NCBI GenBank assembly: GCA_016283155.1
Contig: JAEEMI010000019.1
Coordinates: 64,093 to 128,092 of the forward strand
Reading direction: 5' to 3'
From: Clostridia bacterium
GTDB lineage: Bacteria > Bacillota > Clostridia > Christensenellales > UBA1242
Length of the DNA: 64,000 nucleotides
In this document: positions 2,566-52,870 of the stretch, one piece after another
Numbering within the stretch: position 1 is the stretch's first letter
Layout of the letters: every line of letters starts with the position of its first letter
The notes under the pieces: model-generated
Databases searched by the model: none
What the model was told of the DNA's origin: nothing
The model's input: the letters and a program-made list of their open reading frames with translations, nothing else
Position numbers and translations under genes: made by a program

Positions 2566-3822
2566 ATGTTTGTTGATAGTGTTGATATTACGATTCAAGC
2601 TGGTTCTGGAGGAACTGGAGCCGCAACCTTTTATCGTGATACATTAACGATGTTTGGCGGACCTAATGGTGGTGATGGTGGTCGCGGTGGCGATGTTATT
2701 TTTGTTGGTACAAACAATCTTGATAATTTGGTTGATTTTCATTATCACCAAAAATTTAAAGCTGGTGATGGCGCAAATGGTCAAGGGGGGAATAAAACAG
2801 GTTCAGATGGAGAAGATGCAATTATCCCTGTACCATTGGGTACAAAAATTTTGGACGAAGACGGTAAGTTGCTTTGTGATATTACAACGATTGACCAAAA
2901 ATATATTGCGTTAAAAGGTGGGGCTGGCGGATTTGGTAATACACATTTCGCTACTGCGGCACGTCAAACACCAAATTTTGCCAAGACTGGTGTTAAAACG
3001 CAACCATACCACGTACGTTTAGAACTGAATTGTATTGCAGATGTTGGAATTATAGGTTATCCAAATGTCGGTAAAAGCACATTGCTATCCGTAATTAGTC
3101 GAGCACGACCCAAGATTGCAAATTATCAATTCACAACGTTATATCCTAATATTGGTGTCTCTCAGGTACACGGCCAAAATTTACTGTTTGCTGATATTCC
3201 TGGTTTAATTGAAGGTGCAAGTGATGGAGTCGGTTTAGGAATCGATTTCTTAAAGCACATTTCACGTACACGCTTATTGTTACACGTAATTGACATTGCT
3301 GCTATGGAAGGACGTGATCCATATCGAGATTATCAAATTATCAATCAAGAACTAAAAAAATATCACGCTGATTTGGAAAATAAAAAACAAATTATAGTTT
3401 TAAATAAAATTGATAGTGCAACACCTGAACAAATACAAGACTTTAAATCCAAGTTAGGAAACAAAATTCCAGTTTATGAAATTTCAGCTTTAAATCATAC
3501 TGGATTACAAGATTTATTAGATGCTTGTTTGCAAACTTTAAATACAATTCCAAAGCCAAAACCATTATTAGTTGAAGCAATTTTAGAAAAAAAGATTGAT
3601 AAAAATCAATTTATAGTTACAGGTGGTAATGGTGAATATCAAGTAACAGGTCCGTTTATTGATAATTTAATTCGCGGTGTGGTTTTGGAAGATACTGAGA
3701 GTAACCGTTATTTTCAAAGGCGTTTGGTTCAGCACGGTGTAATCGCTGAGTTGAAAAATATTGGTTTAACAGACGGTGACACAATTCAAATTGCTGGACA
3801 TTTTTTTACATACACTGAATAA
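2566..3822 (+). CDS. obg: GTPase Obg/CgtA
   Basis: MFVD start, Gly-rich Obg fold (GGPNGGDGGRGGD), G1 GYPNVGKST, G3 DIPGLIEGA, G4 NKID, and a C-terminal OCT-like domain. Confidence 0.95.
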   Translation: MFVDSVDITIQAGSGGTGAATFYRDTLTMFGGPNGGDGGRGGDVIFVGTNNLDNLVDFHYHQKFKAGDGANGQGGNKTGSDGEDAIIPVPLGTKILDEDGKLLCDITTIDQKYIALKGGAGGFGNTHFATAARQTPNFAKTGVKTQPYHVRLELNCIADVGIIGYPNVGKSTLLSVISRARPKIANYQFTTLYPNIGVSQVHGQNLLFADIPGLIEGASDGVGLGIDFLKHISRTRLLLHVIDIAAMEGRDPYRDYQIINQELKKYHADLENKKQIIVLNKIDSATPEQIQDFKSKLGNKIPVYEISALNHTGLQDLLDACLQTLNTIPKPKPLLVEAILEKKIDKNQFIVTGGNGEYQVTGPFIDNLIRGVVLEDTESNRYFQRRLVQHGVIAELKNIGLTDGDTIQIAGHFFTYTE

Positions 3823-3911
3823 GCATAATTATCGACGATATATATGCAGGTTACCAGTTACAACGTCGTTTTAAACACCGTCGCAAACATCTTGGATCAA
3901 TTATCGTTATT

Positions 3912-4598
3912 GTGTTAGTTGTGATTACGATGGGAAGTATTACGGCTTTGTTTTTACGTGGTTTTAATTTAAAAGAATTTAATAATCATTTAAAATGTAA
4001 AGTTTTAGAAACACCTACAATGAAAGTTTGGTTACTGGAAAAGCAAAATTATAATGATAAATTAGATGCATATAAAGCTGGAATGGCTGCTGAGAATGTG
4101 GGATTAGGTGTTTATGTATTACCAGATAAAACTCAATGGATATGGGTTGCAGGTGTTTATCTGACAGAAAGTGATGCTGCTGATGCATTACGACGAAGTG
4201 GAATGTCAAATGATGTTATTATTCAATCGTATCAAATTTTGGGTAAAAAAATTCAAGTTGATAGTGAAGTATTTGAGTCTTGTCAAAATATTTTAAAGTC
4301 TATAGAAAACATCTTTCAATTATTATTGGATTTGCGTTCGGCCATTAACATAACAACAAAAAAGAATAATATACAATTAGATTTAACAGTGCAATACAAT
4401 CAAATTAGAAACAGTGCAGAAAATTTACAAACAATTAATGCAACATTGCATGATCTATTTGTTACAACTTTAATTTACACGGCTAATCAAAACACTCTGT
4501 GTTTGCAGGATATTATTAACACAAATTCGGATTCAATTGATTTAGCGATAATTAATACTGCATTGTTGAAAACAATTTTCTCGCTAGACAATTTTTAA
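3912..4598 (+). CDS. hypothetical single-pass membrane protein, possible SPOR-like domain
   Basis: N-terminal TM segment (IIVIVLVVITMGSITALFL). The stretch VWLLEK...GVYVLPDKTQWIWVAGVYLTESDAADALRRSG resembles a SPOR beta-alpha-beta-beta pattern. The frame is open from 3819, so a non-canonical earlier start is possible. Confidence 0.5.
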   Translation: MLVVITMGSITALFLRGFNLKEFNNHLKCKVLETPTMKVWLLEKQNYNDKLDAYKAGMAAENVGLGVYVLPDKTQWIWVAGVYLTESDAADALRRSGMSNDVIIQSYQILGKKIQVDSEVFESCQNILKSIENIFQLLLDLRSAINITTKKNNIQLDLTVQYNQIRNSAENLQTINATLHDLFVTTLIYTANQNTLCLQDIINTNSDSIDLAIINTALLKTIFSLDNF

Positions 4599-4631
4599 TT
4601 GTTTTGCTACCATAAACGCGGGGGATTTATT

Positions 4632-5579
4632 TTGGGATTTTCAGAAGAATTTGTAAAAAAAGCATCTGAGGAAGTAACTTCACTTTCAATGCAAGCAGAT
4701 TATAATTATATGAAAAAAAACTTACGCCAGGCAGTTGCTAATGTTTCGCGTTTGGCTCCTTATTTTGACCCGAACGATGTCGTAATTTATTTACAAGGTT
4801 GTTATGCCTGTAAAACAAATACACGCTTTCAATCTAAACTAGAAATGATTGTTGAAATTACAAAAACGCGTGAATATGATTATGCCACAATGACGCGTTC
4901 AGATATGAAAATGCGTGATAATTTCTTTATTGATTTTGACCATTATTTTGATGTTAAACACTTTAAAGATTTATTAGCTGATGAAATCAGTCGTATTTTA
5001 CGTATAGAAGTTTCAACTAGCACAACGACCATTTTAGTTCCAGCATTTGGTGACTTACAACATTCAATTGATATTTTCCCGTGTTTTAAATATAAATATT
5101 TTCGTCCAGAGGGTGGTAGTATCCGTAGTAAATTAGTATATGACCAAAACTTAGATGAACACTTTTTAATGTTTACTAATCTACACGCAGTTAATGGTAA
5201 TTTGAAAGATACGATGACACAAGGTAATTTTAAACGTATGGTGCGTTTAATGAAGAACTTAGTGGCTATTAGTGCACGTGAAGATAATATTATTCATTTT
5301 GTACGTGGCTATTATGTAGAATGTTTGTTATATAATGTTCCCAATGAAATGTATTTCACAACTGATGGTAAATTATCTTCAATTTTCTTAAAAATTGTCA
5401 ATTGGTTAAATTTTGCTAATTTAGATGAATTTGTTTGTCAAAATCAAATTTGGTCATTATGGGGCAACGCTGACGGATTTTGGAATCAAAATTCAGCGCG
5501 TCAATTCATTAACGATGTAATTGAGTTCTATGAAGCATTCCCTGAGAAACGTACTGAAATAATTAAAGAAGACGAATAA
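4632..5579 (+). CDS. cGAS/DncV-like (CD-NTase/SMODS/OAS-fold) nucleotidyltransferase-like protein with degenerate catalytic triad
   Basis: Pol-beta NTase pattern VVIYLQGCYACKTNT...SKLEMIVEI in place of GS...DxD, and a retained third acidic site HSIDIFP. The helical lobe carries FKRMVRLMKNLV and GYYVECLLYNVP. The TTG at 4632 follows a GGGGGA SD. The ORF track starts at 4599. Confidence 0.55.
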   Translation: MGFSEEFVKKASEEVTSLSMQADYNYMKKNLRQAVANVSRLAPYFDPNDVVIYLQGCYACKTNTRFQSKLEMIVEITKTREYDYATMTRSDMKMRDNFFIDFDHYFDVKHFKDLLADEISRILRIEVSTSTTTILVPAFGDLQHSIDIFPCFKYKYFRPEGGSIRSKLVYDQNLDEHFLMFTNLHAVNGNLKDTMTQGNFKRMVRLMKNLVAISAREDNIIHFVRGYYVECLLYNVPNEMYFTTDGKLSSIFLKIVNWLNFANLDEFVCQNQIWSLWGNADGFWNQNSARQFINDVIEFYEAFPEKRTEIIKEDE

Positions 5580-5581
5580 AA

Positions 5582-6397
5582 ATGATTGCAACTATGATCA
5601 ATAATCACACCCTGCGTGTTGATGATTTAACTCAATTTGATCCATATGCAATTTTGCATAGTGGACAGGTTTTTCGTTACTGGCAAACGAAGCAGGGATG
5701 GTTAGTGATGTCGGGCAGTCACTGGGCGAAAATTATAATTGATAATCGTCAAATAATAATCAGTTGTGATGATGCAAATTATTTTTATCATTACTTTGAT
5801 TTTGATACTGATTACAAGACAATTAAAGCGACTTTAAATGCTCCAAAATTGCAAAATGCTTTAATTAGTGGTGGCGGTATTAGAATTTTAAATGCCGATT
5901 TTGTTGAAGTCGTCTTATCATTTATTATTTCGGCGAACAATAATATTAAACGTTTTACTAAAACCATTAATGAAATTTGTCAAAGATATGGTACACAAAC
6001 AGATTGTGGTTATTGGAGTTTTCCTAATCTAGAACAGTGTTCACAAATAAAAGAAACAGATTTTAAACGATTCGGGTGTGGTTATCGTGCACCATATCTT
6101 GTTAAAGCAATTCAACAATTAAAGCAGTTGGAGTTTAAACAATTACAAAAATTATCCAATCAAGAACTACAACGTATATTATTAAGTATTAGTGGAGTTG
6201 GACCAAAAGTTGCGGCGTGTATAATGCTATTTGCCTTTCATCGTCTAGACACTGCACCCGTTGATACGTGGATAAAAAAGGCGATCGCCCAATTATCAGT
6301 TGCTGAACAAAAAGTTATTCTACAAGGATCATATGCAGGTATAGCGCAACAGTATATTTTTTATTACTTACAACATTTGCATAAGGAAGTGCTCTAA
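5582..6397 (+). CDS. ogg: 8-oxoguanine DNA glycosylase/AP lyase (Ogg family)
   Basis: HhH-GPD motif ISGVGPKVAACIMLF followed by APVDTWIKK, with the catalytic Lys and Asp positions retained. N-terminal OGG_N-like FDPYAILHSGQVFRY. Confidence 0.85.
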   Translation: MIATMINNHTLRVDDLTQFDPYAILHSGQVFRYWQTKQGWLVMSGSHWAKIIIDNRQIIISCDDANYFYHYFDFDTDYKTIKATLNAPKLQNALISGGGIRILNADFVEVVLSFIISANNNIKRFTKTINEICQRYGTQTDCGYWSFPNLEQCSQIKETDFKRFGCGYRAPYLVKAIQQLKQLEFKQLQKLSNQELQRILLSISGVGPKVAACIMLFAFHRLDTAPVDTWIKKAIAQLSVAEQKVILQGSYAGIAQQYIFYYLQHLHKEVL

Positions 6398-6402
6398 TAA
6401 AA

Positions 6403-6424
6403 AAAGACCAACAAAGTGGTCTTT
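6403..6424. terminator. bidirectional rho-independent terminator between ogg and tRNA-Tyr
   Basis: Stem AAAGACCA / TGGTCTTT with a 6-nt loop. It is flanked by an A-run on the left, which reads as a T-run on the minus strand. Confidence 0.6.
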
Positions 6425-6430
6425 GGTAAT

Positions 6431-6516
6431 TGGTGGAAGGGGATGGATTCGAACCATCGAAGTCGTGAGACGACGGATTTACAGTCCGTAGCATTTGACC
6501 GCTCTGCAACCCTTCC
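6431..6516 (-). tRNA. tRNA-Tyr (GTA), CCA encoded, long variable arm
   Basis: The reverse complement reads GGAAGGG...GGACTGTAAATCC...GGTTCGAATCC...CCCTTCCACCA. The cloverleaf has a class II variable arm. Confidence 0.92.
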
Positions 6517-50545: not shown

Positions 50546-51271
50546 TTAGTTATCAATTTTGTTAAATTCTTTTTTTAAACGATTTAAAATCTTTTTTTCT
50601 AATCGCGAAATATACGACTGTGAAATTTCCAGCATATTAGCTACTTCTTTTTGTGTACGTTCTTTACCTCCTCCTAAGCCAAATCTTAATTGCATAATTT
50701 CTTGCTCGCGAATTGATAATTTATCAACTGCCAGCCACAACAAGTTTTTTTCAACTTTCATATCAAGTTCTTCATCAACATTATTTTCCGTGGTACAAAT
50801 TACATCACCCAATCGAATTTCCGTACCATCACTATCAGCATTAATCGCTTCGTCCATTGATACATCGCTACGCGTCTTTTGTACTTTACGTAAATACATT
50901 AAAATTTCATTTTCAATGCACCGACTGCTGTAAGTAGCCAATTTAATGTTTTTATCATATTTGAAACTATTAACTGCCTTAATTAAGCCAATCGAACCAA
51001 TACTAATTAAATCTTCAATATCAATGCCAGTATTTTCAAATTTTTTAGCGATATAAACAACTAAACGCAAATTGTGTGAAATCAACTTTTGTCGTGTTTC
51101 TGGTTTTCCTTGGTCTAATTCTTGTAATAAAATTTCTTCTTCAGCTTTTGGCAACGGTCGCTCAAGTGCTTCCGTTCCATTAACAAAGAAAATACCTGCA
51201 TTTGTCCAATCATCATTTTCTGTCCAGTTAATTTGTTTAAATAATGCTATTGCTTTCGTAATTAAGTTCAT
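50546..51271 (-). CDS. sigE: sporulation sigma factor SigE (pro-sigma-E)
   Basis: [12 protein letters not shown] after an N-terminal pro-sequence. [34 protein letters not shown] and [18 protein letters not shown]. Lies directly downstream of spoIIGA. Confidence 0.88.
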
Positions 51272-51786
51272 ATGATTCCTCCTAATTTAGTATTTAAAAT
51301 CGCATCATATTTTTGATTACTAAAATTTTGCGTACTTACGCCCAACATACTTTGTACTGTTGTTCCGTTAATTTGAATTTTATCAGGTGGAAAAACAAAC
51401 AACTGACTTTTACCATTAACAGTTTGACAATTGATATAATGACCGTCTGTCACACATTTTTCTAATTCGTTTAATAAAATTTTATCTGCAGAGATTTTAG
51501 GAAACATTCTTAAAAAAACTGCCAAAGAAATTATTGAAACTGGTGTTTTTGAAATTGGATCAACTAAAGCATTACCCGAATCTAATAAAGCATTTATACG
51601 ATAAGATTTACCACCATATTCAATTAGTGTTCGATGAAATAATTTTTGTCGCCGATGCCAAAACAATAATTTTTGCAAAATTATATAAAACAACAAAACC
51701 ACAATAACAAGCAAGTATCTATTGGTAAAAGCATACATTGCCGAACCGAAAGCAAACGCAAATGTAATAATTGCTGCCATATGCAT
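51268..51786 (-). CDS. spoIIGA: sigma-E processing aspartic peptidase SpoIIGA (minimal form)
   Basis: [17 protein letters not shown] (DSGN motif). Has a 4-nt ATGA overlap with sigE. Only about 2 N-terminal TM segments in 172 aa. Confidence 0.75.
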
Positions 51787-51901
51787 TATGATAAATATGT
51801 TTACAGTAGCGAATTTATGCTAATCAAATCATTTTATGTAAGAAGATGACGAAGCAAAAAAGTAATGGAAAAAATTTCAATTTTGTGTTAAATAATAAGT
51901 G

Positions 51902-52870
51902 ATGAAATATGTTACCGAACGCGATATTTATAATACTGAACAGTTGAATCGTGTCTTGGAAAATTTACCACCTTTTTGTAATGCATTCTTTTTAGGCATA
52001 GAACAAAACACATCACCATTAACACGTTTAGGTTACGCACGCGATTTAGAAATTTTTTTTAATTTTCTAATCACAGAAACAGAAAAATTTCATTCTTATC
52101 ATATAATTGACTTTGACAAATCTGATTTAAATCAAATTACAATTGACGATTTAGAACTTTATATGTCTTTTTTAGGTCATTATAAAAAATGCGACCGTGA
52201 TTACCTAAATGGTGAGCGCGGGAAAATGCGAAAAATGGCTGCCCTACGTTCATTTTTTAAATACTTTTATCGACGCGGCGATTTACAAGAAAATATTATG
52301 ACTAAAATTGATTTACCCAAAATTCACGAAAAAAGCATTATTCGTTTATCCGATGATGAAGTTGCTAAAATGATTAGTGAAGCTGCAAAAAATCCACGCG
52401 ATGAAATGATTATCAGTCTATTTTTACTTTCGGGCGTTCGTGTTAGCGAATTGGTAGGTTTAGATTATCAAGATATTGATTTAGTTAATAAAACATTCTT
52501 AATCACTCGTAAAGGTGGTAAACAATCTATCTTGCATATGGGACAACAATTACACGACAAATTTGTAGTTTATTTTGCCAATGGAGAATGGACACCAACC
52601 ACTCCGCTATTTACGAAATGTGGACATCGTCTATCGGTACGTGCTATTGAAAACATTGTAAAAAAATATGCTACGATTGCGGCACCTTTAAAAAAGATTA
52701 GTCCTCATAAATTGCGTTCAACATACGGAACTAATCTTTATAAAGCAACAAATGATATTTATGTAGTTGCCGATGTACTTGGACATAAAGACATAAATAC
52801 AACAAAAAAACATTATGCTGCCATCAGCGATGATATTCGCATCAAAGCCGCTGATATGGTTAAGTTATAA
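51902..52870 (+). CDS. tyrosine site-specific recombinase (XerC/XerD-like)
   Basis: N-terminal SAM-like domain. Catalytic residues in GVRVSEL, HKLRSTYGTNLY and LGHKDINTTKKHY. Confidence 0.85.
   Translation: MKYVTERDIYNTEQLNRVLENLPPFCNAFFLGIEQNTSPLTRLGYARDLEIFFNFLITETEKFHSYHIIDFDKSDLNQITIDDLELYMSFLGHYKKCDRDYLNGERGKMRKMAALRSFFKYFYRRGDLQENIMTKIDLPKIHEKSIIRLSDDEVAKMISEAAKNPRDEMIISLFLLSGVRVSELVGLDYQDIDLVNKTFLITRKGGKQSILHMGQQLHDKFVVYFANGEWTPTTPLFTKCGHRLSVRAIENIVKKYATIAAPLKKISPHKLRSTYGTNLYKATNDIYVVADVLGHKDINTTKKHYAAISDDIRIKAADMVKL

Follow-up and report, generated by a model that had tools for sequence, protein, structure and literature searches.

Organization of the gene block

The window analyzed here is a 64,000-nucleotide stretch of a contig from a Clostridia bacterium, whose source assembly is 0.96 Mb in size, 88% complete and approximately 32% guanine-plus-cytosine (GC). 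Near its start lies a conserved block of four genes, all on the plus strand. The first is obg (2566-3822), which encodes the GTPase Obg (Pfam GTP1_OBG, 7.5e-50; MMR_HSR1, 6.7e-26; DUF1967, 2.4e-14) and heads the block in every same-genus locus for which flanking sequence is available. It is followed by a gene for a single-pass membrane protein (3831-4598; 255 residues counted from an ATC codon), by a gene for a 315-residue CD-NTase (a nucleotidyltransferase resembling cGAS and DncV) of the CdnE type with a remodeled active site (4632-5579), and by ogg (5582-6397), which encodes a clostridial-type Ogg, an 8-oxoguanine DNA glycosylase/lyase. The CD-NTase, hereafter called the NTase, is the subject of this report. 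Its gene is separated from the membrane-protein gene by 33 nt and from ogg by 2 nt. GC content is flat across the block, and that of the NTase gene equals that of its surroundings. An earlier interpretation made from the DNA letters alone (the sequence-only reading) had described three tightly packed open reading frames (ORFs) downstream of obg, and we found their coordinates and motifs to be as it described, apart from the start of the membrane-protein gene.

The NTase gene begins with a TTG codon at 4632, which is preceded at a distance of 6 nt by the Shine-Dalgarno-like sequence GGGGGA (4620-4625, plus strand). Homologs begin with MGFSEEF or LGFSEEF at this same position. A TTG codon at 4599, which would give a 326-residue ORF, was also considered, and the codon at 4632 was preferred because of the Shine-Dalgarno-like sequence and the conserved MGFSEEF N-terminus.

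The NTase is a clade-E CD-NTase

The middle protein of the three is a true clade-E CD-NTase of the CdnE type. It is matched by the PADLOC Cyclase model PDLC00788 (5e-38) and is homologous to solved enzymes in the Protein Data Bank (PDB): the comparison with entry 6e0k gave 1e-19 with the single sequence (phmmer) and 1e-60 with a profile, and the PDB sequences matched are RmCdnE, EmCdnE, ClCdnE, EfCdnE and LpCdnE. An AlphaFold2 (AF2) model of the NTase has a predicted local distance difference test score (pLDDT) of 87 and a predicted template modeling score (pTM) of 0.82. When this model was searched with Foldseek, CdnE structures came out on top with TM-scores of 0.74-0.79 (normalized to the target), followed by CdnC, CdnD and cGAS. 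The NTase thus combines the two-lobed nucleotidyltransferase core and helical lobe of the CD-NTase superfamily with homology to its solved members. The sequence-only reading had proposed this cGAS/DncV-type fold from the motifs QGCYACKTNT, SKLEM, SIDIFP, FKRMVRLMKNLV and GYYVECLLYNVP, and both the PDB matches and Foldseek agree with it. All of the quoted motifs are present, and the NTase motifs align residue-for-residue with the GS loop, the DxD dyad, the third Asp and the helical lobe of the solved CdnE enzymes.

The fold and the family are already known. The precomputed Pfam assignment of the NTase is PF26305 (CD_NTase_C); a Pfam scan, in which PF26305 was not reported, returned chance-level matches only. 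The best-scoring named family is NCBIfam NF053871, "DS2_2 anti-phage nucleotidyltransferase", which aligns model positions 1-293 of 294 to residues 1-300. The score of 107.8 bits is under the cut-off of 350 and places the NTase outside that family. Relatives with an intact DxD dyad score 256-287 bits against the same model, and members of the degenerate clade described below score 100-124 bits.

Two segments near the C-terminus (within residues 272-315; window 5445-5579) combine high conservation with low model confidence. The aromatic loop QNQIWSLWGNADGFW is one of them, with pLDDT <50 at residues 274-282. The other is a clade-specific C-terminal tail, FP-x-KRTEIIKE. The loop and the tail could be partner-binding or lid elements.

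A single-origin subfamily with a rebuilt active site

Searched with a profile, a set of 1.84 billion representative proteins yielded 1,952 NTase relatives, and we surveyed catalytic motifs in the best 150 of these together with close homologs. Approximately 130 read D-x-D…D, and approximately 14 clusters plus the window's own group read [K/N/S]-x-E…[D/E]. Every protein of the [K/N/S]-x-E clade comes from small-genome gut Clostridia. In a maximum-likelihood tree, 23 of the 24 sampled non-DxD proteins fell on one side of a branch with a Shimodaira-Hasegawa-like approximate likelihood ratio test (SH-aLRT) support of 100. The exception is P0116, a 614-residue protein that reads N-x-D…D, carries approximately 300 extra residues and sits among canonical CdnE proteins; it may have lost the first Asp independently, or it may be a fusion protein.

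We then compared 23 clade members with 133 canonical sisters column by column, using LpCdnE as the structural reference. The numbering of the LpCdnE chain was checked against the published numbering, and Arg29, Gln51, Ser53, Asn59, Asp65 and Asp67 all coincide. In the window, codons K69-L70-E71 (4836-4844) stand where the sisters have D-x-D, with K69 and E71 corresponding to LpCdnE Asp65 and Asp67. Position 69 is Asp in 133/133 sisters and Lys (12), Asn (9) or Ser (2) in the clade; position 71 is Asp in 133/133 sisters and Glu in 23/23 clade members. The third acidic residue, D147 (codon 5070-5072), corresponds to Asp139 and is D or E across the clade. At G226 (codon 5307-5309), the counterpart of LpCdnE Ser220, the sisters have Ser in 132 of 133 cases and the clade has Gly in 23/23. 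The GS loop (codons G56-C57, 4797-4802; LpCdnE Gly52-Ser53) reads G-C in the window protein and its nearest kin and G-S in the other clade members. All of these codons lie on the plus strand. Compared with the catalytic signature G[S]...[DE]-h-[DE]...[DE], which has three carboxylates, the NTase reads G-C...K-L-E...D. The alignment to LpCdnE therefore confirms the earlier observation of a K-x-E dyad with the third acidic residue retained.

The other nucleotide-contacting residues did not change. G56, S57 (apart from the Cys in the window protein and its closest kin), Y58, N63, H185, N188, G189, K192, T196, R205, K208, Y227, C231 and N235-P237 are the same in the clade and its sisters. Structures of CdnE complexes assign roles to several of the counterparts. 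The donor γ-phosphate is held by Ser53, Asn59, Lys201 and Ser220, the last through a hydrogen bond (LpCdnE/ClCdnE complexes, PMC10442399), Arg197 of ClCdnE binds the β-phosphate, Tyr221 stacks on the donor base and the lid Asn reads the acceptor base (PMC10442399). Together, these comparisons show a subfamily of single origin whose catalytic center has been rebuilt, with the first Asp changed to Asn, Ser or Lys, the second to Glu and the γ-phosphate Ser to Gly, and in which the remaining nucleotide pocket (GS loop, Asn63, lid Asn188, Lys192, Arg205, Lys208 and Tyr227) is under strong selection. Clade members carry K, N or S at position 69, with each step from D to N to K or S requiring one base change, and this variety suggests that the residue need no longer be a metal-binding carboxylate.

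These changes bear on whether the protein is still an enzyme. The sequence-only reading had raised the possibility of a pseudoenzyme, which is a reasonable suggestion. The first carboxylate is gone throughout the clade. A serious, if unlikely, alternative to loss of cyclase chemistry is that the NTase is an active signaling enzyme with an unusual metal site formed by Glu71 and Asp147, with K, N or S at position 69, and that what it makes controls a cellular process by way of a receptor whose gene lies elsewhere in the genome. In LpCdnE, Mg-A is bound by Asp139 and also by Asp67, which bridges it to Mg-B, so that both residues are direct metal ligands (PMC10442399), and the clade keeps their counterparts in E71 and D/E147. 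These acidic residues and nearly all of the nucleotide-contacting residues are invariant across the clade, and a second acidic residue that is always Glu looks like compensation rather than decay. Against this, an Asp that no sister lacks has been replaced by the chemically unlike K, N and S, the equivalent of the γ-phosphate-binding Ser220 has been lost, and searches of the genome, which is 88% complete, turned up neither a receptor nor an effector.

The NTase gene is an inherited core gene under purifying selection

The NTase gene was found in 16 of the 18 species genomes of the genus, and in two of the six other genera of the family; of the order's other families, 16 were sampled and none has it. 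In one of the two genus genomes that gave no match, the contig breaks off directly behind the membrane-protein gene; the NTase is probably merely unassembled there. Homologs bear labels such as "Clostridia bacterium", "Eubacteriales bacterium" and "Christensenellaceae bacterium" and come from ruminant, deer and termite guts. The window's genome contains a single CD-NTase-like gene.

Wherever flanking sequence is available within the genus, the order obg-membrane protein-NTase-ogg is kept, down to 57% NTase identity. The ratio of nonsynonymous to synonymous substitution rates (dN/dS) for the NTase is 0.03-0.09 across 14 loci, at which dS is mostly saturated. The median dN of the NTase exceeds that of the C-terminal half of obg by a factor of 1.6. 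It comes to 0.7 of the value for ogg and 0.36 of the value for the membrane protein, which means that the NTase evolves 1.4 times more slowly than the former and 2.8 times more slowly than the latter. NTase dN also correlates with obg dN (r = 0.93). Within the genus, then, the NTase is a vertically inherited core gene of the block formed by obg, the membrane protein, the NTase and ogg.

The disappearance of both the catalytic Asp and the effector could also be explained if the gene were a functionless relic of a lost cyclic-oligonucleotide-based antiphage signaling system (CBASS). This pseudogene explanation is highly improbable and runs against the evidence of selection: all 19 genomes with a match have an uninterrupted reading frame, the low dN/dS and an evolution slower than that of Ogg speak for constraint, and long invariant motifs persist across the clade.

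The upstream membrane protein

The protein encoded directly upstream of the NTase begins with a conserved N-terminal tail with the motif I-D-D-L/I-Y-x-G-Y and continues through a basic patch and one membrane helix to a ferredoxin-like domain and a four-helix bundle that ends in an invariant SLDNF. In its AF2 model (pLDDT 87), the membrane segment forms part of one long N-terminal helix, which is followed by a β-α-β-β-α-β domain and the bundle. The protein matched no family in Pfam, NCBIfam or PADLOC, including Cap15 and SAVED, and its homologs are confined to the genus.

SPOR domains have a β-α-β-β-α-β fold and bind denuded glycan. The sequence-only reading had called the membrane protein SPOR-like, which is a weak lead. 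The sole specific structural match is the SPOR domain of CwlC (1x60; TM-score 0.71 over 77 columns, E 0.015), and many generic ferredoxin-like folds score close to it. At the sequence level no match was significant, with the Pfam SPOR model (PF05036) hitting one of 25 family members at E 0.067. The net charge flanking the membrane helix is approximately +5.4 on the N-terminal side and +2 on the C-terminal side, and by the positive-inside rule the folded part is predicted to lie outside the cell. A folded part that faces outward would fit poorly with a receptor for a cytoplasmic nucleotide.

The start of this gene is unusual in that no ATG, GTG or TTG codon lies upstream of the membrane helix. 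The first in-frame codon of this kind is 14-36 codons downstream, at non-conserved places inside or beside the helix; gene callers accordingly start the gene at many different downstream codons, with products of 215-256 residues. In 14 of 15 loci an ATC codon, replaced by ATA in the other one, directly precedes the conserved peptide D/E-D-L/I-Y-x-G-Y, within which variation falls mostly at third codon positions. Some metagenomic homologs have an ATG two codons past the ATC. The candidate ATC start lies 8 nt after the obg stop and has no Shine-Dalgarno sequence, as is also the case in L002-L018 and L104. From this pattern, the gene probably starts at the near-cognate ATC, which would presumably be used through translational coupling to obg. 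An ATA codon at 3819 is an unlikely start, given that the ATC at 3831 is the one common to the orthologs. Fusion of Obg to the membrane protein by readthrough or frameshifting was rejected, as the two genes do not keep one frame relation from locus to locus, and in L003 two in-frame stops separate them.

Genomic neighbors and the search for CBASS effectors

A CBASS operon places a CD-NTase next to an effector activated by cyclic oligonucleotides, for example Cap15, the patatin CapV, Cap4, Cap5, or a SAVED or TIR fusion. Among DxD sisters from several phyla, the immediate neighbor is Cap15 at three loci, a patatin at one and a Cap2-like E1/E2/JAB protein at one. In the window, the neighbors of the NTase are a membrane protein of no known family and Ogg. 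Neither matches an effector family, in keeping with the earlier statement that the arrangement is not that of canonical CBASS. A search of the window's genome (88% complete) for SAVED, patatin and Cap15 receptor domains gave no match. The degenerate subfamily lacks a recognizable CBASS effector partner.

Outside the genus the NTase keeps different company. In G007 it is flanked by a TMEM164-like membrane protein and a GNAT protein, and homologs in G007, G020 and G023 occur without the membrane protein of the genus. The G023 locus, from a sister genus (L015, G023:C11, 2107-6655), has the degenerate NTase between a KAP-family P-loop NTPase and an unannotated gene of 339 residues, followed by Abi_alpha, an arrangement like that of a defense island and different from the one in the window. 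In five N-x-E lineages of other genera (L016, L019-21, L022, L024 and L025) a tyrosine recombinase adjoins the NTase, with coordinates of L016:884-1885, L022:6943-7998, L024:4934-5896 and L025:4611-5585. The window's ortholog of this chromosomal recombinase is at 51899-52870, 47 kb from the NTase and beside spoIIGA-sigE-floA, and it is 44-50% identical between genera. The adjacent SpoIIGA-like ORF (51268-51786, minus strand) encodes 172 residues, which match the Pfam model only in its C-terminal part (positions 89-284); the ORF could be a truncated one or have another start.

The sequence-only reading had proposed to check whether the three genes occur together, counting homologs never linked to the flanking genes against its proposal. 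The three genes are linked throughout the genus, and beyond it the NTase has other neighbors, which by that standard partly counts against the proposal.

This pattern bears on the idea, put forward in the same reading, of an "NTase plus membrane effector" module. Here the locus would be a minimal CBASS-like defense module in which the NTase triggers the upstream membrane protein as its effector. Tight packing fits such a module, as does the persistence of the membrane protein-NTase pair wherever flanking sequence is available in the genus; Cap15, the effector of the canonical sister clade, is a membrane protein too, and the conserved cytoplasmic tail of the membrane protein in the window could dock a partner. 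The evidence nevertheless does not support this explanation, which we judge improbable. The membrane protein matches no Cap15, SAVED or PADLOC model, its folded domains are predicted to be extracellular, it is restricted to the genus, and NTase homologs exist without it next to other neighbors. Moreover, the catalytic dyad is broken, and core-gene behavior under strong purifying selection is unlike that of mobile defense genes.

Ogg and the surrounding features

The downstream gene encodes an apparently intact glycosylase. Its product passes the Pfam cut-offs for OGG_N (2.5e-11) and HhH-GPD (4.6e-9) and is closest to Clostridium acetobutylicum Ogg (PDB 3f0z, 9e-39), with which its catalytic Lys (GVGPKVA) and Asp (PVDTW) align. 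The GVGPKVA Lys aligns with the residue at which the near-identical entries 3f0z and 3f10 differ, K versus Q. The score against TIGR00588, 129.8 bits, is under that subfamily's cut-off of 397.85. With both domains and both catalytic residues in place, the protein belongs to the Ogg family, and its description as catalytically intact was correct.

The gap of 2 nt from the NTase stop to the ogg start, and the adjacency of the two genes across the genus to the limit of NTase identity given above, could indicate that the NTase is a sensor of DNA damage or repair acting with Ogg, which the sequence-only reading had also considered. We find this quite improbable: the adjacency is gone outside the main lineage of the genus, a tyrosine recombinase adjoins the NTase instead in other genera, and the NTase sequence contains no pointer to DNA binding. 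The idea draws its support from the within-genus adjacency. The membrane protein and Ogg appear to be co-expressed operon neighbors of the NTase, and the evidence does not mark them as its signaling partners.

A hairpin, AAAGACCA-ACAAAG-TGGTCTTT (6403-6424), lies between ogg and a convergent tRNA-Tyr gene (6431-6516, minus strand) and is probably the 3' end of the obg-ogg block. A scan for promoters and terminators found promoter-like sites no more commonly than in shuffled sequence and was not used to define transcription units. The next gene downstream of the block encodes a CaCA transporter, whose position or orientation varies between loci. Upstream of obg is a clpC-like gene (56-2086), and between the two lie small ORFs of 79 and 68 residues on the minus strand (2071-2529). 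These are probably real genes, because their protein sequences are kept in the distant same-genus loci L013 and L017.

Discussion

On balance, and with moderate confidence, we favor the interpretation that the NTase is a domesticated CdnE-type protein that can still bind nucleotide, is probably no longer a canonical cyclase and has a cellular role in a lineage with reduced genomes. The protein would still bind nucleotide, probably together with one metal held by Glu71 and Asp147, and would no longer perform canonical two-metal cyclization. It may act as a nucleotide-binding sensor or regulator, with at most a slow or altered transferase activity, in a cellular rather than an abortive-infection role.

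Several points weigh against this interpretation. Loss of activity is read from the residues themselves, and the account of the CdnE complexes does not list the first Asp among the direct ligands of Mg-A or Mg-B (PMC10442399), so some catalysis could survive its replacement. The incompleteness of the genome limits the negative result for effectors, and none of the 14 control genomes supplied a positive control for the SAVED and Cap15 searches. In G023 the NTase has Abi_alpha and a KAP NTPase as neighbors, which is a defense-like setting. Finally, gene order conserved within one genus is explicable by descent alone, and it neither proves nor excludes a functional link.

The proposed domestication would matter in several ways. 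Bacterial CD-NTases have been treated almost wholly as phage-defense enzymes, and they are usually mobile, patchy in distribution and paired with a cell-killing effector. The NTase presents the opposite case: a clade of single origin with a rebuilt catalytic center, no effector, fixed chromosomal positions and housekeeping-like purifying selection, in genomes of approximately 1 Mb where little stays without need. If it binds nucleotide without cyclization, it would be a natural bacterial pseudo-cGAS and a tractable model for the re-use of immune sensors. If it is still active, the first carboxylate would be dispensable in a cGAS-like fold. Our literature searches found nothing relevant on naturally inactive CD-NTases or on "DS-2", and no description that combines a first-carboxylate-replaced clade of single origin, effector loss and fixation as a core chromosomal gene.

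Animals offer an analogy. Mab21-type proteins and MiD51 are catalytically inactive relatives of the cGAS fold that have kept the ligand pocket, lost the catalytic carboxylates and taken on non-immune roles. They and the NTase are of independent origin, with no specific sequence relationship. The NTase could be the bacterial counterpart of the animal Mab21-type story, a possibility we put forward tentatively and hold to be somewhat short of probable: a cGAS-like immune cyclase that lost its effector and its first carboxylate and became a fixed part of the core genome in a gut-associated Clostridia lineage with reduced genomes, with a housekeeping role as nucleotide sensor or regulator and co-expressed with Obg. 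If that is true, bacteria, and not eukaryotes alone, can domesticate CD-NTases for their cellular physiology.

Among known systems, the membrane protein is most readily compared with SPOR proteins of the FtsN/CwlC type, whose layout its own is predicted to resemble: a short, basic tail in the cytoplasm precedes a single membrane helix and an outward β-α-β-β-α-β domain. It differs from them in its additional C-terminal four-helix bundle, which has no structural match, and in belonging to a family found in one genus. For the NTase, the nearest systems are the clade-E CBASS CdnE enzymes (RmCdnE, 6e0k/6e0l; EmCdnE, 6e0m; ClCdnE, 7x4a; LpCdnE, 7x4f; EfCdnE, 7x4c). It shares their fold and domain order, and it has in common with them the GS loop, Asn63, the lid Asn188, Lys192, Arg205, Lys208, the stacking Tyr227 and the ECLLYNVP helix. 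Unlike these enzymes, it carries Lys in place of the first catalytic Asp, Glu in place of the second and Gly in place of the γ-phosphate Ser, and it stands without an adjoining effector as a core chromosomal gene rather than as part of a defense island.

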